Below are positions 822 through 24,227 of a stretch of 32,944 bases of DNA, piece by piece (within the stretch, counting starts at the first letter, position 1; each line of letters starts with the position of its first letter). The position numbers and the translations under genes were made by a program. This DNA comes from a virus (Duplodnaviria; Caudoviricetes): the IMG/VR virus record IMGVR_UViG_3300046779_000460, positions 1 to 32,944 of that record. One strand, 5' to 3'. The notes beneath the pieces are model-generated. The model was given only the letters and a program-made list of their open reading frames with translations. It did no database searches and had not been told where the DNA came from.

Positions 822-1711
822 TAATATGTTCCTCCGTCAAGTGTTCCTGTGATTTTGCTACCCGCTAAAGATGTTATCCACGACGGATTAGCATATGAAC
901 CGCCTAGCGCAACATAAGTGCTGGCAGCGGTAGATGAAGTTAAATAACTCGATAAATCTAATGTACTCCATTGAGTAGCATAATTGGTATTTGATGATTT
1001 TACTAAATACTGTCCGGTAGTACCGCCTGAAGGAACACCAACACCATCAGCACCAGCAGGACCAGTTGCTCCAGTCGGTCCTGTAGCACCTTGCGGTCCA
1101 GTTGCTCCTGTAGCGCCTTGCGGACCTGTATCACCAGTATCGCCTTTAAGACCTTGTGGACCAGTCGCTCCTGTAGCGCCAGTGGCTCCTGTAGCGCCTT
1201 GAGCGCCTGTTGCTCCAGTCGGTCCTGTTGCTCCTTGAGGTCCAGTAGCGCCAGTTGCGCCGGTCGCTCCAGTTGCGCCTGTTGCGCCTGTAGCACCAGT
1301 AGGAATACCTAGACTAACAATTAAATCATTTGAATCGTAACTGACTGTTGCGGAAGAACCAGCAGCTAAAGTCGTTGCTTGAAATACTACATTGTCAGCA
1401 AAGTTTAAGGTTGCGTCTCTTGCTGCTTCTGCGTTGGTTTCTGCTGTTTCGGCATTAGTTTCTGCCACCAAAGCAGCATCTCTTGCTGACTCAGCAGAGT
1501 TCTTTGCATTAGTTGCTGTAGTAGCAGAACTTGATGCTGAAGACGCTGAACCACTTGCTGCAGAGGCTGAACTCGATGCAGAGGTTGCACTGTTTTGTGC
1601 TTGGTTTTTGAAGTTCTCGGCTTGTTGGGCATATTGTTGTGCTACGACGGCTTGGTTATTTGCATCGTTAGTAGCATCACCTGCTCCGCCGGGTCCACGA
1701 TAGATTGACAA
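821..1711 (-). CDS. Collagen-like tail fibre protein
   Basis: TTG start with AAGGAG RBS; Ala/Ser coiled-coil region, 28 consecutive Gly-X-Y triplets, C-terminal DGGTY. Confidence 0.85.
1046..1297 (-). repeat. Collagen Gly-X-Y coding repeat (28 triplets, mostly Gly-Ala-Thr)
   Basis: Counted directly in the translation. Confidence 0.95.
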
Positions 1712-1755
1712 GGCTTATCTCCTTATTTGTTTAAATACACTCGTTGAATGCACTT

Positions 1756-1784
1756 AAACAAACTCCCTAGCCGAAGCTAAGGAG
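1756..1784 (-). terminator. Intrinsic terminator after the major capsid gene
   Basis: CTCCTTAGC-TTCG-GCTAGGGAG 9 bp stem with cUUCGg loop, followed by TTTGTTT. Confidence 0.85.
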
Positions 1785-1799
1785 CTTGAGTAGCCTATA

Positions 1800-2756
1800 T
1801 TAGGCGTTTACTGCGAGTACAAAGCCAGCTTCTGGGCGAACTACTTTAGTACCGAAGAGGGTATCAGCGGTATAAAGAGTCGACAAGTATTCTTGCTTGT
1901 ACTGAGTCTGTGAACGAACACCGAGTTGCTCTGCAAATACCAATGTATCGGTATGGAACAAGAGAGCAGCTTTGATGGCATCGCCAACAGAGTTGTCGCC
2001 AGCGGTTTCAATGATAGGCATATTGCTTGATACATAAACATCAATACCATATAGCTTACCGATTTGACCGTTGTTTACACCACGACCATCAACGAAGTCA
2101 GAGCTATTGTAACGGTCAATGCCCATGATTGCGTTGCGGAGTGATGGAGGAATAGCAAACTTACGACCATCCATTGGAACATCAGCGTCGTCCATCAACT
2201 GGATGAGCTTACGGAAACCAGCATCGGTGAATACATCAGATGTGGTAACAGTGTCTAATGCGTAGGCGGTTAAGCCAGTGGAAGCATCGATAAAGTATGC
2301 GTTGCTATGAACCCAGTCAGAAGCGTCACCGTCGCCGAAGGACTTGCCACCAGCGATGAGGGTGTCATCAACTTTCTTAGCCAAAGCGTAACCAGCATCT
2401 TCAGTGTAGAACGAACGCAAAGAAGACAATGCTTGAGTTTCGACGATGTCTTCGATGAAACGGCTATACTCAAAGTGTTGGTCGATGAGAACTTGTACTT
2501 CGCTCTCCACATTCGCCTGAATGGTAACTGCAGTGTTAGCTGCTTTAGCTGCTGCTACGCCACGAGTTGGCTTAGGAATATGCAGTGTGTCGCCTTTTTT
2601 GCCTTTAAAAGACATTTTACGGACGAGGTTTGCAAGAACTAAGTTTGCCTTGTACGCAGCGATAACTTCATCAGACCAAATTTCTGGTATGAACTTATCT
2701 GCGTTTGTTTTGTTGACGATAGAACTACTACCGCCGGGGTATGTTACTGCTGCCAT
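1800..2756 (-). CDS. Major capsid protein (HK97 fold)
   Basis: 318 aa; FIPEIWSDEV and GDTLHIPK motifs typical of podovirus coat proteins; follows the scaffold gene and precedes a terminator. Confidence 0.92.
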   Translation of the reverse strand: MAAVTYPGGSSSIVNKTNADKFIPEIWSDEVIAAYKANLVLANLVRKMSFKGKKGDTLHIPKPTRGVAAAKAANTAVTIQANVESEVQVLIDQHFEYSRFIEDIVETQALSSLRSFYTEDAGYALAKKVDDTLIAGGKSFGDGDASDWVHSNAYFIDASTGLTAYALDTVTTSDVFTDAGFRKLIQLMDDADVPMDGRKFAIPPSLRNAIMGIDRYNSSDFVDGRGVNNGQIGKLYGIDVYVSSNMPIIETAGDNSVGDAIKAALLFHTDTLVFAEQLGVRSQTQYKQEYLSTLYTADTLFGTKVVRPEAGFVLAVNA

Positions 2757-2790
2757 GATTAATTTCCTTTATGAATTATTAAGTCTAAAA

Positions 2791-3612
2791 TTACTTAACT
2801 CTCCCCTCAGCGTATGCGGCTAGGATTTCATCCTGTAAATCTGCATAACGATTAGGGTCGGTCAGTTTCAATTTAATTAGGTCTGCTCGACGATATACTT
2901 TCCTGCTCGTCTCTCCAGCACCACCAACATCAACAGAGGCAGCCTTCATTGCTTGTTCTTGAGCTTTGCTTTCTACTGCTGCAGTTTGAGTCGTTTGCGT
3001 TTGCTGTTTAATTTGCTTTAGTTCTTTGTAAGTACTAAGCAACTCATCGGCGGCATCAAAGTCAAACTCTGCATCAGCTTTAGCAAACAAGTTCAGTCGA
3101 ATCTTAGAAGATTTAACCCAATCTTGGAATCCAGTATCTTGTGCGATAGTGGTAAAATCAGGATGTTTAGCCGACAGTTGTTGTGCCGTCTTCATCTTCT
3201 TCATTTCTAATGCTGCTTGTCTAGCTTCAATTACAGCAGGGTGCTTCTCTACTTGTCTGTTGACAGCCTGTTTAGGGTCTACAAAAAAGTCTTCTTCAAG
3301 CGATTCTTCAATAGGCGCTGTTTCTTTTGTTCGAGCTTCGAGTTGTTGTTTTAAAAGCTGGTCTGCAAGACTTCGTACCTCATGAACCTCGTTTGCTTGA
3401 CGACCAATGAGCTTCTCAGCCTCTTGATGCATCTTTGCAATTTCTATTGCGGACTTACCTCTGTACTTCTCTGGTAAATCTTCTACTGGTTCTTGTGGTT
3501 TAGCTTCAGGTTGTGCGTCTGTTGTTGACGCTTCTGGAGTTGTAACATCTTGTACTACTTCTGTTTCATTGCTTTCAAACAGTTCGTCTTCTTGAATAAA
3601 TGTTGCTGCCAT
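2791..3612 (-). CDS. Capsid scaffolding protein
   Basis: Acidic helical 273 aa protein with PEKYRGKS motif and C-terminal AYAEGRVK; directly upstream of the capsid gene; AGGAG RBS. Confidence 0.82.
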   Translation of the reverse strand: MAATFIQEDELFESNETEVVQDVTTPEASTTDAQPEAKPQEPVEDLPEKYRGKSAIEIAKMHQEAEKLIGRQANEVHEVRSLADQLLKQQLEARTKETAPIEESLEEDFFVDPKQAVNRQVEKHPAVIEARQAALEMKKMKTAQQLSAKHPDFTTIAQDTGFQDWVKSSKIRLNLFAKADAEFDFDAADELLSTYKELKQIKQQTQTTQTAAVESKAQEQAMKAASVDVGGAGETSRKVYRRADLIKLKLTDPNRYADLQDEILAAYAEGRVK

Positions 3613-3686
3613 TTAAAGTCTCCTGTCACCGAATCAAGTGATTTTAGGATTAATAATCTGAGGCTCTATTTCCCAATAAAGGTATC

Positions 3687-3917
3687 TCAGGCGTTTTGCT
3701 TTGCTTCTTGCTTCTGTTTGTCTTCGTGCCTTTTCGCCCATCTATCATAGGCGGAGACGAAGACTGGGTCAGTGCCATCCAAACTAATTCTTATAGGAGA
3801 AATAATTCGGTTAGCAACTAAACCACATTCACAAAGAATCGTTGTTGTTTCATCTCCAACAAAACTCTCTGTGATATGTTCCTCTGAGCATTTAAAGTCG
3901 TATAACTTCCTACTCAT
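3687..3917 (-). CDS. Small FmdB-like zinc-ribbon protein
   Basis: Start moved to MSRKLYDFKC (GGAG RBS upstream); YDFKC..H and CEC metal ligands; 76 aa. Confidence 0.7.
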   Translation of the reverse strand: MSRKLYDFKCSEEHITESFVGDETTTILCECGLVANRIISPIRISLDGTDPVFVSAYDRWAKRHEDKQKQEAKQNA

Positions 3918-12565: not shown

Positions 12566-13930
12566 ATGAACTATCTTAGTGTTTGTAGTGGTGTTGAGGC
12601 GGCGACAGTAGCGTGGCATTCGTTAGGATGGCAACCTGTTGCATTTTCTGAAATTGAGTCATTTCCATCAGCAGTACTGGCTCATCATTATCCAAATGTT
12701 CCTAATCTTGGGGACATGACTAAATATAAGGAGTGGAATTTAAATGAATCAATTGACATTCTTGTTGGAGGAACTCCCTGCCAATCATTCTCAGTCGCAG
12801 GACTTCGTAAAGGACTTGAAGACCCACGAGGAAACCTCGCACTCACCTATGTTGGAATTCTTGACCGATTTAGACCCAAGTGGTTCATTTGGGAAAATGT
12901 GCCGGGTGTCCTCAGTTCAGGCGGTGGACGGGATTTTGGAGCCTTCCTCGGGGCGGTGGCTGAACTCGGGTATGGGTTCGCATACAGAGTGCTTGATGCT
13001 CAAAACTTCGGAGTCCCACAAAGGCGCAGAAGAGTGTTTGTTGTCGGACATCTTGGAGACTGGAAACCTGCAGCAGAAGTATTATTTGAGTCCGAAAGCC
13101 TGTCAGGGGATTTTAAATCGGGCCGCAAGACGAGGAAAAGTGTTACCGGTTTTGTTGAAAGTAGCTTTGGACAATATCGTGAAGATGTCATCGCAGGAAC
13201 AACCAAAGCCAGTGGAGGAGTCTTAGGTGGTGGTTCGGAAACATTCTATGTTGAAGACATTGCAAATTGTTTACAGACTACTTGTCATGAATGGAGCAGA
13301 GCAGATGGTTTTAACATGATTGCGTATGAAAACCATCCATCCGATAGCCGTGTTCAAGAGATGGGCGAAACCTGTCAGACTGTTACATCTACATGGGGAA
13401 CTGGCGGTGGTAACATTCCGTTCGTGCAGAATGTTTCGTATGCTTTACAGGGTGCAGGCGCAACAAGTCAAACTGGAAATGGGATGGGATATAAGGAAGA
13501 GCAGTCCTATACATTAAATACGACAGATGTACATGGTGTTGCGTTCGGTTGGCAAAACAGTTCCAACCAAAGTATGTCGGTGGATACTATTTCACCAACA
13601 TTGGATAAAAGCAAAACACCTGCGGTTGCAGTTCCATTGACAAATATTGTTGCACCAACTCTGACGGCATCCAATAACCCAAGTCGCTCACCGCAATCTA
13701 CTGAAGTCACTAATCAAGTGGCATCTGTCTATGCTGCAAGCACCGCAGTTCGTCGATTAACGCCTATAGAATGCGAACGATTACAGGGATTTCCTGATAA
13801 CTACACACAGATTCCTTGGAATAAGAAAGTTTCTGCTGACTGCCCGGATGGTTTGCGTTACAAAGCAATGGGTAACTCAATGGCTGTGCCTGTGATGAAC
13901 TGGATTGGCACACGCATTAATAATCTGTAA
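12566..13930 (+). CDS. C5 cytosine DNA methyltransferase
   Basis: Motif I variant SVCSGVEA, catalytic GGTPCQSFS, ENV, QRRRRVF, RRLTPIECERLQGFP and GNS; long variable region. Confidence 0.95.
   Translation: MNYLSVCSGVEAATVAWHSLGWQPVAFSEIESFPSAVLAHHYPNVPNLGDMTKYKEWNLNESIDILVGGTPCQSFSVAGLRKGLEDPRGNLALTYVGILDRFRPKWFIWENVPGVLSSGGGRDFGAFLGAVAELGYGFAYRVLDAQNFGVPQRRRRVFVVGHLGDWKPAAEVLFESESLSGDFKSGRKTRKSVTGFVESSFGQYREDVIAGTTKASGGVLGGGSETFYVEDIANCLQTTCHEWSRADGFNMIAYENHPSDSRVQEMGETCQTVTSTWGTGGGNIPFVQNVSYALQGAGATSQTGNGMGYKEEQSYTLNTTDVHGVAFGWQNSSNQSMSVDTISPTLDKSKTPAVAVPLTNIVAPTLTASNNPSRSPQSTEVTNQVASVYAASTAVRRLTPIECERLQGFPDNYTQIPWNKKVSADCPDGLRYKAMGNSMAVPVMNWIGTRINNL
12744..13226 (+). CDS. Overprinted +1-frame methyltransferase partner polypeptide (beta-subunit-like)
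   Basis: 160 aa with its own AAGGAG RBS at 12728-12733; contains LSDILE...KYYLSPKACQGILNRA, resembling a segment found in C5 methyltransferases. Confidence 0.75.
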   Translation: MNQLTFLLEELPANHSQSQDFVKDLKTHEETSHSPMLEFLTDLDPSGSFGKMCRVSSVQAVDGILEPSSGRWLNSGMGSHTECLMLKTSESHKGAEECLLSDILETGNLQQKYYLSPKACQGILNRAARRGKVLPVLLKVALDNIVKMSSQEQPKPVEES

Positions 13931-14353: not shown

Positions 14354-15936
14354 CTGAGAGTAAATTTTTATATCACATGGCTTGCGACGAGTGCGGTTCA
14401 AGCGATGGTAACGCTATGCACAGCGATGGACACACTTACTGCCATGTATGCCACACATACAAGGCTAGGACAGGTGAAATTACGAAAGATTACAAAAAAC
14501 CAATGAACAAGGAACTAAACTTTTATGACAATGCTTCTTCTCGTAGTATCGTTAATCGTGGTATTACTTCGGCTACTTGCGTAGCTTACGGCGTTAAACA
14601 GGATGATGGTAAACACTACTATCCCTACTACGACATTGATGGCAAGATGGTCGCTATTAAGACTAGATTGGTAGAAACCAAATCATTTAGCATTGCCGGT
14701 GACTTCAAAGAAGCCACACTCTTTGGGCAGAATTGTTTTACCAAATCAGGTCGATACTTAACTATCTGTGAGGGTGAACTAGACGCTCTGGCTGCTTATC
14801 AGATGCAAGGTAGTAAATATCCTTGTGTCAGTATCCGCAGTGGCGCTAGTGGCGCTCTGAAGGACTGTAAAGCAGAATACGAATGGATTGATTCTTTTGA
14901 GAATATTATCTTATCGTTTGATGCTGATGAACCCGGACAGAAAGCAGCACAGGCTGTCGCCGAGTTGTTTGGTGGCAAAGTTAAAATCATGAAACATAAG
15001 ACAGGATACAAAGATGCCTCTGATTATCTTGAAAATGATGCTAGTAAGGAATTTGTTGATACTTGGTGGGCTGCTGAATCTTACATACCTGATGGAATTA
15101 TTCAAGGTAACACCCTCTGGGAATTGGTATCGTCTCCTATTGAGAAAGCTGATTGTGACTATCCGTATGACGGCGTTAATAAACTCACATACGGCATTCG
15201 CAAAGGGGAACTTGTCATGGTCACAGCAGGCTCTGGTCTTGGCAAATCTCAGTTCTTACGAGAAATCGTTTGGCATATCCTTAACAAGACTAGTGACAAT
15301 GTCGGACTTATGTTTCTTGAAGAGGGAGTCCGCAAGACTGCTAGGTCGCTTATGTCTTTGGCGGTGAACAAACCCATTCACTTACCTGATGTTGAAGTTA
15401 CTTCTGAGGAGTTAAAAGATGCTTTTGATAGAACTTTGGGAACTGACCGCCTGTATTTGTTTGACCATTTTGGCAGCACTTCTTTGGAAAACATTGTCAA
15501 CCGAGTACGATATATGGCTAAAGGTCTTGGTTGTGGTTATGTCTTTCTTGACCATATTAGCATTATCGTTAGTGGCGGTGATGTTGGTGATGAACGGAAA
15601 GCTCTTGATGCCATCATGACTAAGCTACGCATGATTGTGCAAGAGACTGGCATCAGTTTGATTTGTGTCTCCCATCTCAAGCGTAACGAAGGTCGTGGAC
15701 ACGAGGAAGGCGCTGTTACATCCTTGGCACAGTTGCGTGGCTCAGGCGCTATTGCACAGCTCTCTGACATCGTCATAGGACTAGAGCGTAATGGACAGGC
15801 TGAAGATATGATTGAACGCAATACCACTAGTGTCAGGGTGCTGAAGAATCGATTTAGTGGATACACTGGCAATGCTGGCTCTTTGCTGTATAATGGACAA
15901 ACCGGAAGAATGTTAGAGATAAAGGACACACTATGA
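14350..15936 (+). CDS. T7 gp4-like DNA primase-helicase
   Basis: Zn finger CDEC...CHVC, TOPRIM motifs CEGELD and FDAD, Walker A AGSGLGKS, LDHIS, LRGSGAIAQLSD, KNRF; likely TTG start overlapping the upstream TGA. Confidence 0.95.
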   Translation: MTESKFLYHMACDECGSSDGNAMHSDGHTYCHVCHTYKARTGEITKDYKKPMNKELNFYDNASSRSIVNRGITSATCVAYGVKQDDGKHYYPYYDIDGKMVAIKTRLVETKSFSIAGDFKEATLFGQNCFTKSGRYLTICEGELDALAAYQMQGSKYPCVSIRSGASGALKDCKAEYEWIDSFENIILSFDADEPGQKAAQAVAELFGGKVKIMKHKTGYKDASDYLENDASKEFVDTWWAAESYIPDGIIQGNTLWELVSSPIEKADCDYPYDGVNKLTYGIRKGELVMVTAGSGLGKSQFLREIVWHILNKTSDNVGLMFLEEGVRKTARSLMSLAVNKPIHLPDVEVTSEELKDAFDRTLGTDRLYLFDHFGSTSLENIVNRVRYMAKGLGCGYVFLDHISIIVSGGDVGDERKALDAIMTKLRMIVQETGISLICVSHLKRNEGRGHEEGAVTSLAQLRGSGAIAQLSDIVIGLERNGQAEDMIERNTTSVRVLKNRFSGYTGNAGSLLYNGQTGRMLEIKDTL

Positions 15937-17241: not shown

Positions 17242-18965
17242 GAATCGTTCTTGATATTGAAACCAACGCAGCACACGATAAGATTTGGTGTGTCGTTACT
17301 CGTAACATTGACAATGCGGAGGTGAAAGTATGGAAACATCCAGAAGGACTACAAAAGTATTTGGACTCTTGCACTTTGATTATAATGCACAACGGCATAA
17401 ACTTCGACGGTCCTGTTCTCAAGAAGAATTGGAAGATTACTATGAAGAAGACGCAAGTGTGCGATACGCTCGTAATAAGTCGTTTGTTTTCGCCAAGCAT
17501 CGAGTCTGGGCACTCACTACAAGCATGGGGTGAGCGTTTAGGATATTACAAAGCACCTTATAAAAAGATATGGTCTTGGATGACTAATAAGGCTTTAATT
17601 GTTGAAGATATTAAAGGTAAGAAAGTTGACCAAAGCAATTTAGCTTTTGACGAGCCTGTAATGTCAGCACTAGTGTGGTATTGCATACAGGACACACTAG
17701 TAACTCAAAAACTGTATGAACATTTAACCAAGGAGATGTCACATGACTATTCACAAGAAAGTATCAAACTCGAACACGAAGTCGCATTCATCATCGCAGA
17801 GCAAGAGCGAAATGGATTCCGATTCAATGAAGCTAAAGCTCTACAATTATTATCTGTTCTTAAAACTAAGCTGGACGCTATTTGCGTTGAAATGCAGAGC
17901 ATCTTTCCTGCCAAAGTCACATCTGGTCGCACCCATCAAACACATGGTAGACCCCTTCCCGACATCGTGGAAAACTTCAATCCCGGAAGCCGCAAGCAAA
18001 TCGCCGAAAGGCTCATCGAGAAGGGTTGGAAGCCGAGCAAGCTCACAGAAAAAGGCAGCATCATTGTCGACGAAACAACGCTCGAAGGCATCGACATCCC
18101 AGAAGCGAAAGCCATCGCTGAATACTTGATGTTACAAAAGCGGATAGCACAGGTTGAGAGTTGGATTGATGCTATTCAAATCGATGGTCGTGTGCATGGA
18201 CAGGTTATTACTAACGGCGCAGTTACTGGTCGTATGACCCACCACAGTCCTAACATGGCACAGGTTCCCAATAGTGGTAGTCCTTATGGACCAGACTGCA
18301 GAGAACTTTGGACAGTTAATAAAGGATATAAATTAGTTGGCATTGATGCAAGCGGTTTAGAGTTGCGAATGTTGGCTCATTATATGAAAGACGATGCGTA
18401 TACTACTGAAGTTGTATCAGGCGACATACACACAGCGAACCAAAAAGCAGCAGGGCTTGAGACAAGGAATCAAGCTAAGACTTTTATCTATGCATTCCTC
18501 TATGGTGCGGGAGCTGCCAAGATTGGGTCAATTGTTGGAGGTTCATCGAAAGAAGGACAAGCACTCATTACTCGTTTTCTACGCAACACGCCGGGGCTTA
18601 GAGCATTGCGGGAAAAAGTATCTCGTCTCTACTTTCAGAAAGCGTGGCTACCGGGTCTGGACGGACGCAAGTTACTCGTTCGCTCGGAGCATTCAGCGCT
18701 CAACACGCTATTGCAAGGCGCAGGTGCGATAGCAATGAAACAGGCACTGGTGATATTCAACAAGCGTTTACGCCAGTCAAAGATTGATTATAAGTTTGTA
18801 GCCAATGTCCATGATGAATGGCAGGTTGAAGTGGAAGAGAATCGTGCAGACGAAGTCGGTAAACTAGGTGTACAATCAATTACCGATGCTGGTGTAGTAT
18901 TAAAGATGCGCTGTCCGTTAAGCGGCGAATATCGTGTAGGTAACAACTGGAAAGAGACCCATTAA
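17238..18965 (+). CDS. Family A DNA polymerase with 3'-5' exonuclease (T7 gp5-like)
   Basis: Exo motifs LDIET, HNGINFD and YCIQD; motif A DASGLELR, motif B RNQAKTFIYAFLYG (Tyr at the Pol I 762-equivalent position), motif C VHDE. Confidence 0.97.
   Translation: MRIVLDIETNAAHDKIWCVVTRNIDNAEVKVWKHPEGLQKYLDSCTLIIMHNGINFDGPVLKKNWKITMKKTQVCDTLVISRLFSPSIESGHSLQAWGERLGYYKAPYKKIWSWMTNKALIVEDIKGKKVDQSNLAFDEPVMSALVWYCIQDTLVTQKLYEHLTKEMSHDYSQESIKLEHEVAFIIAEQERNGFRFNEAKALQLLSVLKTKLDAICVEMQSIFPAKVTSGRTHQTHGRPLPDIVENFNPGSRKQIAERLIEKGWKPSKLTEKGSIIVDETTLEGIDIPEAKAIAEYLMLQKRIAQVESWIDAIQIDGRVHGQVITNGAVTGRMTHHSPNMAQVPNSGSPYGPDCRELWTVNKGYKLVGIDASGLELRMLAHYMKDDAYTTEVVSGDIHTANQKAAGLETRNQAKTFIYAFLYGAGAAKIGSIVGGSSKEGQALITRFLRNTPGLRALREKVSRLYFQKAWLPGLDGRKLLVRSEHSALNTLLQGAGAIAMKQALVIFNKRLRQSKIDYKFVANVHDEWQVEVEENRADEVGKLGVQSITDAGVVLKMRCPLSGEYRVGNNWKETH
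17743..18129 (+). CDS. Probable overprinted +1-frame protein inside DNA polymerase
   Basis: AAGGAG RBS 7 nt before the ATG; local switch in polymerase codon usage matches the ORF boundaries. Confidence 0.55.
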   Translation: MTIHKKVSNSNTKSHSSSQSKSEMDSDSMKLKLYNYYLFLKLSWTLFALKCRASFLPKSHLVAPIKHMVDPFPTSWKTSIPEAASKSPKGSSRRVGSRASSQKKAASLSTKQRSKASTSQKRKPSLNT

Positions 18966-22319: not shown

Positions 22320-24227
22320 ATGACAGAATATAAGATGAGTCCCTACAATACCTTTATTGCTAAATCACGATACAGTCGCTATCTTGACGATAAAGGTCGC
22401 AGAGAACACTGGAGTGAAACAGTAGCACGATACTTTGACTTTATGACAGAGCATCTCAAGACCAAACAGAACTACACACTATCGCCTGAGTTACGCAAAG
22501 AATTAGAAACTGCTGTTGTTAATCTTGAAGTAGTGCCGTCTATGAGAGCTGTGATGACAGCAGGACCAGCACTAGAGCGTCAGAATGTCGCAGCATTTAA
22601 CTGTTCATATTTACCAATCGATGACCCCAAAGCCTTTGACGAAGCAATGTACATTCTTCTCTGTGGCACTGGTGTCGGCTTTTCTGTGGAGCAGCAATAT
22701 GTTTCTAAACTACCTGAAGTCCCAGAGCAGTTGTTTGCTAGTCAGACTACTATTGTGGTGTCGGATTCTAAAGAAGGATGGGCTAAATCACTTAGACAGC
22801 TCATTGCTTTACTGTATTCTGGTGAAGTTCCAAGGTACGACTTATCCAAAGTTAGACCTGCCGGAGCTAGACTCAAAGTATTCGGAGGTCGTGCTTCTGG
22901 ACCCGGACCTTTGGAAGAGCTTTTTAAGTTCACTATTGCCAAGTTTAGAGGGGCAGTTGGTCGTCGTTTGTCGTCCATTGAGTGTCATGATATTCTGTGC
23001 AAAATCGGGGAAGTTGTTGTTGTGGGTGGAGTCAGACGGAGTGCAATGATTTCCTTGTCTGATTTGTCAGACGACAAGATGGCACACGCTAAAGCAGGTA
23101 ACTGGTGGGACGGTCAAGGACAACGAGCCTTAGCCAATAACTCTGCTACCTATGCTGAAACACCTAGTATCGGTCAGTTTATGCGTGAATGGTCAAGTAT
23201 CTATGAATCACACTCTGGAGAGCGAGGTATATTTAATCGTGAAGCATCTCAGAAACAGGCAGCAAAGAATGGTCGCAGAGACGAAACCTATGCTTTTGGC
23301 ACTAACCCTTGTAGCGAAATCATTCTTCGTCCTTATCAGTTTTGTAATCTTTCCAGTTGTATTGTGCGTAGCTACGATACTGTATCTACCTTGGAGAATA
23401 AAGTCCGCTTGGCAACGATTTTGGGAACCTTCCAAGCATCGCTAACAGAGTTTCCTTACCTGCGTAAGATTTGGGAAAAGAACACCAAAGAAGAGGCGCT
23501 ATTGGGTGTGTCTATGACCGGTATCTGTGACAATGAACTACTGAATAATCCTGATGATGAAGACTTACCTGCTCGATTGGAGAGACTAAGAGATGTTGCT
23601 ATCACTACTAACATTGAATTTGCTGCAACTATTGGTATTAATCAGTCTGTGGCGGTTACTGCTATCAAACCAGAGGGAACAGTTTCTCAGCTTTGCAGTA
23701 CTGCTTCTGGGATTCATCCTCAACATAGCAAGTATTACATACGCCGTGTTCGGGCTGATAACAAAGACCCATTAACACAGTTTATGCTCTCCTCTGGCTT
23801 TGTCGGTGAGCCTTGCTATCTAAAACCAGACTCTACTACTGTCTTTAGCTTTCCTGTAAAGGTAGACGATGGTGGACTATTGCGTGAAGACTTAACTGCG
23901 ATTCAGCACTTACGGCTTTGGTTATTGTTCCAACGGCATTACTGTGAACATAAACCATCTGTTACCATCTCAGTGCGTGAAGATGAGTGGATGGATGTTG
24001 GGGCGTGGGTGTATCGCCACTTCGATGAAGTAACTGGAGTGTCTTTCCTACCAATGGATGGTGGCACTTATAAACAAGCGCCTTACGAGGAATGTGATGA
24101 GGAGACTTATAACAAGTTAAAAGCCTTGGTTCCCAATGCCGTAGACTGGGAGAACTTCAAAGAGTATGACGATAATGTGGAAGGCGCTCAGACTTTGAGC
24201 TGTACTGCAGGCGGATGTGAGATTTAA
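22320..24227 (+). CDS. nrdJ: Class II (adenosylcobalamin-dependent) ribonucleotide reductase, monomeric RTPR type
   Basis: FNCSY, TNPCSEI, FCNLS, IKPEGTVSQL and C-terminal CTAGGCEI; no beta-subunit gene adjacent. Confidence 0.93.
   Translation: MTEYKMSPYNTFIAKSRYSRYLDDKGRREHWSETVARYFDFMTEHLKTKQNYTLSPELRKELETAVVNLEVVPSMRAVMTAGPALERQNVAAFNCSYLPIDDPKAFDEAMYILLCGTGVGFSVEQQYVSKLPEVPEQLFASQTTIVVSDSKEGWAKSLRQLIALLYSGEVPRYDLSKVRPAGARLKVFGGRASGPGPLEELFKFTIAKFRGAVGRRLSSIECHDILCKIGEVVVVGGVRRSAMISLSDLSDDKMAHAKAGNWWDGQGQRALANNSATYAETPSIGQFMREWSSIYESHSGERGIFNREASQKQAAKNGRRDETYAFGTNPCSEIILRPYQFCNLSSCIVRSYDTVSTLENKVRLATILGTFQASLTEFPYLRKIWEKNTKEEALLGVSMTGICDNELLNNPDDEDLPARLERLRDVAITTNIEFAATIGINQSVAVTAIKPEGTVSQLCSTASGIHPQHSKYYIRRVRADNKDPLTQFMLSSGFVGEPCYLKPDSTTVFSFPVKVDDGGLLREDLTAIQHLRLWLLFQRHYCEHKPSVTISVREDEWMDVGAWVYRHFDEVTGVSFLPMDGGTYKQAPYEECDEETYNKLKALVPNAVDWENFKEYDDNVEGAQTLSCTAGGCEI

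Follow-up and report, generated by a model that had tools for sequence, protein, structure and literature searches.

A stretch of phage DNA of 32,944 nucleotides (hereafter the window; IMG/VR record IMGVR_UViG_3300046779_000460) carries a C5 cytosine DNA methyltransferase gene that appears to code in two frames: the main frame for the methyltransferase proper (alpha chain), and the +1 frame, which is under selection at the protein level, probably for a second polypeptide (beta chain) that would bind alpha and complete an orphan phage enzyme. Our comparisons demonstrate, at the level of sequence, that the locus is dual-coding, that the nested product is homologous to a beta chain of the EcoHK31I type, and that a segment present in the nested product is missing from alpha.

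A putative beta-chain gene nested in an orphan phage methyltransferase gene

The window encodes a primase-helicase, a family A polymerase, a class II ribonucleotide reductase (RNR), terminase, portal and capsid, and hence is phage DNA. Alpha belongs to the C5 methyltransferase class (PF00145/dcm) by its motifs I-X, catalytic Pro-Cys and methyltransferase fold: it matches Pfam PF00145 (E 1.9e-58), scores above the cut-off of TIGR00675 (dcm) and, in a fold search with its predicted model, aligns to M.HhaI over 221 residues (Z 24.5, rmsd 2.3). Its neighbours are the primase-helicase gene and short ORFs, none longer than 86 aa, with no cognate restriction endonuclease alongside, and the enzyme is therefore an orphan. 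The features of the locus, by position in the window, are:

12566..13930 (+), alpha chain of the C5 cytosine DNA methyltransferase (454 aa), comprising motifs I-VIII, a long variable region and motifs IX and X
12728..12733 (+), candidate Shine-Dalgarno sequence AAGGAG, 10 nt upstream of the nested ATG (weak evidence)
12744..13226 (+), nested +1-frame gene with an ATG start, predicted beta chain (160 aa, P0001)
12770..12784 (+), motif IV of alpha with the catalytic Pro-Cys, inside the overlap with beta
12890-12901, motif VI, inside the span of the nested ORF
12954..12974 (+), beta motif RWLNSGM, matching R36-M42 of the EcoHK31I-type beta chain
13019..13033 (+), alpha motif VIII (QRRRR)
13041..13169 (+), C-terminal core of beta (LSDILE...YYLSPKACQGILNRA...LP), the segment that follows motif VIII in single-chain enzymes, here moved to the +1 frame
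13118..13678 (+), alpha variable region, residues 185-371, with five short Thr-Leu-type repeats
13751..13798 (+), motif IX, read in the frame of alpha (RRLTPIECERLQGFPD)
13859..13879 (+), motif X, likewise in the frame of alpha

The nested ORF, which contains LSDILETGNLQQKYYLSPKACQGILNRA, lies wholly within the 454-codon ORF at 12566-13930, one base out of register with it, and runs across motifs IV, VI and VIII and then ~60 codons beyond VIII, bearing out the original prediction of a 160-codon +1 ORF inside the methyltransferase across motifs IV-VIII. Length alone proves little here, since the RNR gene of the window also has a 157-codon open +1 stretch, and we dropped it as proof of coding. 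P0001 has no family match in Pfam, NCBIfam or PADLOC; it does match PHROG families named DNA methyltransferase. A predicted model of beta alone is poor (pTM 0.30), with residues 1-99 mostly at pLDDT <50 and confident helices (pLDDT ~90) only at 117-130 and 136-151, and a search of PDB sequences with the beta profile brought up no methyltransferase at E values up to 10.

Relatives were retrieved with the first 175 residues of the main protein, the best 80 of at least 596 confirmed stretches being taken; removal of an incomplete locus, exact duplicates and sequences at least 95% alike left a non-redundant set of 58, including the window, with a median nucleotide identity of 72%. In all 58 a start codon (ATG, GTG or TTG) lies 11-13 codons upstream of the catalytic PC (41 ATG, 2 GTG and 5 TTG at -11, and 10 TTG at -12 or -13), usually directly after a +1 stop. 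The AAGGAG claimed as the ORF's own ribosome-binding site is present where it was said to be but is not conserved: a word of the Shine-Dalgarno kind occurs in 37 of the 58, little above the ~46% expected from Lys codon use (AAG in 151 of 327), and AAGGAG encodes Lys-Glu in the main frame. We dropped it as proof of translation, the word being near that expectation and AAGGAG being rarer than expected in the window (11 seen, 15 expected).

In alpha, motifs IX and X together align to M.HhaI 265-318. Of 160 viral loci examined, 121 distinct and complete ones remained once 35 duplicates and 4 incomplete loci were dropped, and in 120 of these alpha holds motif IX. The repeats in its variable region are likely target-recognition modules; together with the range of alpha lengths among close relatives (290-575 aa), they suggest modular target-recognition units. 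Such modular units are a feature of multispecific phage methylases.

The +1 frame is kept open and is selected as protein

Over 130 codons from the catalytic PC, the +1 frame has no stop in any of the 80 loci (the best 80 of at least 596; one of them, L103, is incomplete), and the +2 frame has 5-13 stops over the same span. Stop codons in the +1 frame of close homologues, the observation that would have told against the original prediction, are thus absent. The nested frame contains 0 stops against 401 expected in the 58 non-redundant relatives, a count that overstates independent events because the sequences share ancestry, and the 57 codons ahead of the nested start hold 4.7 +1 stops per sequence. 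When the codons of the main protein were resampled synonymously, none of 20,000 trials kept the frame free of stops, the mean being 8.7. The +2 frame, the alpha-only region and single-chain enzymes serve as valid negative controls.

Codon-position variability in alpha (positions 1/2/3) is 0.17/0.11/0.51 before the overlap and 0.46/0.30/0.27 after motif VIII; given this flip, it is the wobble position of the nested frame that varies most past motif VIII. Across motifs IV-VIII, pN/pS is 0.23-0.24 in the main frame and 1.1-1.35, not under 1, in the +1 frame; past motif VIII it is 0.41 in the +1 frame versus 1.02 in the main frame; outside the overlap the +1 value is 1.71. By these measures, selection changes from the main to the +1 frame after motif VIII, where alpha evolves near-neutrally. 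Among beta residues, R71 is found in 100% of sequences versus 9% expected from alpha, G76 in 95% versus 5%, G78 in 97% versus 5% and G122 in 100% versus 11%, and a few (such as G47, G50 and G107) are simply forced by alpha. Judged in this way, many beta residues are conserved far beyond what alpha imposes.

A conserved main protein and codon bias could in principle hold a frame open with nothing expressed from it, as the three forced glycines and the existence of long +1 stretches in the window might suggest. The missing stops, the residues conserved far above alpha's forcing, the passage of selection to the +1 frame after motif VIII and the stops found in single-chain controls (see below) nevertheless largely refute such a shadow of alpha, which we consider extremely improbable.

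Beta carries a segment that single-chain enzymes have after motif VIII

The segment of the nested product that had been singled out at the outset begins at 13041, directly after motif VIII. In Dmt of Bacteroides phage BT528P2, a match to beta 90-127 (E 1.1e-5) lies in frame, directly after motif VIII. The 80 loci retrieved with this protein comprise 65 distinct proteins, 30 of which are matched in frame by the beta profile; in the 64 whose motif VIII could be recognised, the +1 frame contains 3-14 stops, and in none is it free of them. A profile built from the single-chain region after motif VIII matches beta 97-134 with an HH probability of 90.7 (E 1.3e-6), whereas against the alpha alignment the probability is 0.2 (E 0.27), and the best match of the beta profile among 49 alpha chains reaches only E 0.33. 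The proposal that the +1 frame holds the segment following motif VIII, and that the main frame lacks it, is upheld by these values, on which the beta C-terminal core is the segment that single-chain enzymes carry and alpha does not.

Single-chain BT528P2 Dmt and M.HhaI share the fold and order of motifs of the window enzyme, and have an LxDILE...YYLS-type segment after motif VIII; in contrast to the window, single-chain enzymes hold this segment in the main frame and their +1 frame is closed. HMMER places the BT528P2 segment at M.HhaI 161-200, a placement that is not significant on its own. We take this segment to begin the small domain of M.HhaI and to pack near motif IX. No intact single chain joining motifs I-VIII to the beta segment occurs among the 124 longer or Pfam-bearing proteins that we classified.

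Beta is related to the EcoHK31I beta chain but differs in layout

An EcoHK31I-type locus was located with a published primer (PMC2836561, supplementary data), which matches 80 of 5,426 E. coli genomes and has no match in plasmids. In one such E. coli locus (L171), a gene for a 309-aa methyltransferase with a nested 176-aa +1 ORF lies beside that for a 318-aa NotI-family nuclease. All four primer ends tested fall in it, and Met residues stand at 17 and 26, in agreement with PMC2836561; one residue differs from a primer, so that it is a near-identical allele and not certainly the type gene. P0001 shares 37% identity with the L171 beta chain over 106 aa (BLASTP E 6e-14), and the profile comparison gives E 8.6e-23, so that the profile search against the EcoHK31I beta chain proposed as a check finds the two homologous; the alpha chains are 39% identical over 193 aa.

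M.EcoHK31I (E. coli, YGGCCR), as represented by L171, thus has in common with the window enzyme a beta chain nested in the +1 frame of alpha and the motifs RWxNSGM and LSxxLE. The layouts differ. The 176-aa EcoHK31I-type beta starts after motif IV and the window beta before it; the former ends with motif IX, which is missing from its alpha, whereas the latter is without it, and in the window both IX and X are retained in alpha (15 of 22 residues of alpha motif IX are identical to the motif IX that ends the EcoHK31I-type beta). L171 adjoins a restriction endonuclease, while the window enzyme stands as an orphan within the replication module of a phage. Because its beta lacks motif IX, the window enzyme is a variant relative to the only tested enzyme, EcoHK31I. 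The two-chain reading modelled on EcoHK31I therefore holds for the homology of the nested beta but not for the layout, in which motif IX belongs to the main chain.

In PMC2836561 and PMC3404938, motif IX of EcoHK31I is assigned to beta and is absent from alpha, and is given as the reason why the enzyme needs beta. According to PMC2836561, the EcoHK31I beta chain is made from internal starts; alpha with these starts silently removed gives no methylation, which is restored by beta supplied in trans; beta deletions reduce protection from deletion 37 on, with weaker association; and in zinc-finger fusions protection drops sharply between deletions 65 and 70. In our alignment, W37 of the EcoHK31I beta chain corresponds to W72 of P0001, and L65-E70 to L100-E105. 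On this alignment, the motifs common to the two beta chains coincide with the places where EcoHK31I deletions lose association and activity. RWLNSGM is likely an anchor by which beta would bind alpha. The part of beta common to EcoHK31I and the window is not motif IX, since in the window alpha holds it.

As motif IX, the published reason for the EcoHK31I beta chain, sits in alpha, beta may be less essential here. It could then be an accessory: alpha, with motifs I-X, would methylate alone, and bound beta would adjust stability, activity or the choice of target. We regard this as unlikely. Retention of IX and X, which sets the window alpha apart from that of EcoHK31I, would agree with it, as would the alpha-only model, in which the catalytic domain and C-terminal motifs fold with good confidence; but the same model leaves residues 185-371 at pLDDT <50, alpha is without the segment that single-chain enzymes retain, and the frame has been lost in 0 of 80 relatives (the best 80 of at least 596). 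Moreover, in the published account of EcoHK31I, activity collapses on deletion into the shared LSxxLE with motif IX still present.

M.AquI (CYCGRG) is a two-chain C5 methyltransferase split after motif VIII, according to PMC3404938. Its small chain consists of the distal variable region and motifs IX-X, unlike the window beta, which stops at 13226 and leaves IX-X in alpha. A phage-borne counterpart with the layout of the window is known from annotation: in Streptococcus phage MM1 (DQ113772), orf13 and orf14 are annotated as 'C5 methyltransferase alpha subunit' and 'beta subunit', with a nested beta free of motif IX and with IX in alpha. The MM1 beta is 34% identical to P0001 (E 1e-5; profile E 1.1e-26) and ends earlier, without the last predicted helix. 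The window has the same arrangement: its phage C5 methyltransferase retains IX-X, and the beta homologue nested in it is without motif IX. Given the MM1 annotation, a two-chain enzyme of this kind is not new for phages.

Nested beta homologues are widespread and mostly absent from phage annotation

In a profile search, beta has matches in 5,981 protein clusters (50% identity), 4,433 of them at E 1e-10, and tblastn found beta matches in 318 of 50,697 phage records. Among the 60 tblastn matches listed, only the three MM1 records show a second CDS. Ten records were examined individually: the beta homologue lies in the +1 frame of the annotated feature in nine (MM1, P1 dmt, Omega, Vibrio K453, CRP-821, Mm5, Schatzie, NatCom_42228 and Saumur, the annotated frame of the last looking irregular) and in frame in one, and beta is annotated only in MM1. 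In phage P1 (AF234172, L162), dmt (1576-3840) has an unannotated, open +1 frame of 163 codons homologous to beta (E 1.4e-33). The expectation that standard annotation misses beta is accordingly right for most GenBank phage records but not for metagenome gene callers, which sometimes find it (nested beta called as a protein in 246 cases). Within literature coverage that takes in few subscription journals, we found no paper on widespread nested beta chains in phage methyltransferases or in P1 dmt, and the accessible parts of PMC11855218 and PMC3706429 do not mention a nested beta.

Pattern matching sorted the 124 longer or Pfam-bearing proteins into 81 in which beta is followed by the variable region and motif IX, 8 joins of the alpha N-terminus to beta, and 35 others. 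The first form, which is AquI-like, is found in 1 of the 121 complete loci (L156). There, ~135-165 codons past the catalytic PC, a run of 11 G moves the variable region and IX-X into the beta frame; this AquI-like split may be an assembly error or phase variation. We did not accept the form as real, since its sole locus switches frame at that run and could be misassembled. In Omega (L163, genes 127-128) and Schatzie (L169, gene 116), alpha ends early, and the variable region and IX-X are found further downstream in a frame of their own, with the nested beta alongside; the Schatzie locus is also interrupted by an HNH gene. These two loci may be broken genes or three-chain forms.

The 8 joins bear on whether the +1 segment is reached by ribosomal frameshifting, giving a fusion of the alpha N-terminus to the beta C-terminus. 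The joins and the weak Shine-Dalgarno sequence would fit such a fusion; the joins, however, fall at differing places, as expected of indel errors or mutations, and every one of the 58 relatives has an in-register start, usually just behind a +1 stop. The +1 frame is, besides, already open ahead of motif IV, and the EcoHK31I beta chain comes from internal starts (PMC2836561). We therefore hold frameshifting to be quite improbable, and favour a separate beta chain begun at the internal ATG.

Open +1 frames in other replication genes

Avoidance of stops is not special to the methyltransferase gene, as three other replication genes of the window show it too. The polymerase gene has a +1 ORF at 17743-18129 (+) of 128 codons, with AAGGAG at 17730 and a conserved Leu/Trp-rich stretch; its +1 frame has 0 stops versus ~179 expected over 17778-18077 in 38 non-redundant relatives, and a +1 pN/pS of 1.03. 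It is a probable overprinted gene. The same gene contains a second +1 ORF of 112 codons at 18394-18732 (+). In the RNR gene, the +1 frame at 22699-23049 (+), within a listed ORF that begins at 22585, stays free of stops across 116 codons in 68 of 72 relatives (25 stops in all versus ~374 expected), with Met at 22699 in 97% and, in the window, GGAG 8 nt upstream; its product is hydrophobic and under weak sequence constraint (+1 pN/pS 1.29). The primase-helicase gene has a 117-codon +1 ORF at 15014-15367 (+), whose start Met is the same in the relatives displayed, with 3 stops versus ~164 expected over 15040-15339 (38 relatives), and a second stop-poor +1 stretch at ~15460-15579 (7 versus 71 stops). 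We take the position of this ORF to resemble that of T7 gene 4.2 inside gene 4. None of these +1 ORFs (both in the polymerase gene, and those in the RNR and primase-helicase genes) has a PHROG match. Being themselves conserved open, the polymerase, RNR and primase frames were dropped as negative controls.

Beta might likewise be one of several overprinted genes of the replication module, with a function separate from the methyltransferase, and the open +1 frames just described are in keeping with this. Yet the two of these frames for which it was determined have +1 pN/pS values of 1.03 and 1.29, and none matches a PHROG, whereas beta matches DNA methyltransferase PHROGs, the EcoHK31I-type beta chain and an in-frame segment of single-chain enzymes, and 81 of the 124 longer proteins have it joined to the variable region and motif IX. 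An unrelated overprinted gene is thus very improbable. What is special to the +1 frame of the methyltransferase gene is the switch in selection together with these homologies.

A proposed two-chain mechanism and its implications

We infer that alpha and beta form a heterodimer and that activity depends on beta. In the mechanism that we propose, ribosomes would start at the internal ATG to give the beta chain, and the N-terminal half of beta, with RWxNSGM, would grip the alpha catalytic domain. The LSDILE/YYLS helices would then stand in for the missing segment, which opens the small, target-recognition domain next to motif IX, and the assembled alpha/beta enzyme would methylate phage DNA, most likely as protection against host restriction. 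The arrangement could plausibly have arisen from a single-chain ancestor by two compensating frame changes on either side of the segment, with an internal start as the rescue.

A nested beta of this kind was already known from EcoHK31I and is annotated in MM1; the gain lies in breadth and mechanism. Tentatively, and with considerably less assurance than for the two-chain reading of the window itself, we suggest that dual-coded two-chain C5 methyltransferases could be a major phage class (~6,000 clusters at 50% identity, P1 Dmt included) in which the invariant job of beta would be to scaffold the target-recognition domain and not to supply motif IX. A separate scaffold might free the alpha variable region to gain, lose or swap modules, and single indels past that region might toggle the gene between EcoHK31I-like, AquI-like and window layouts without killing the enzyme.

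If so, methyltransferases of phages and prophages that are now annotated as one protein, P1 Dmt among them, would in thousands of cases have two chains. A subunit would then be lost on cloning with codon optimisation, in in-frame deletions, or when structures are predicted from the annotated protein only, which would bear on the testing of orphan phage methylases as anti-restriction factors. The published view that motif IX is the contribution of the EcoHK31I beta chain would be revised, and the locus would show cleanly how an overlapping gene can arise when a piece of an enzyme is shifted to another frame.
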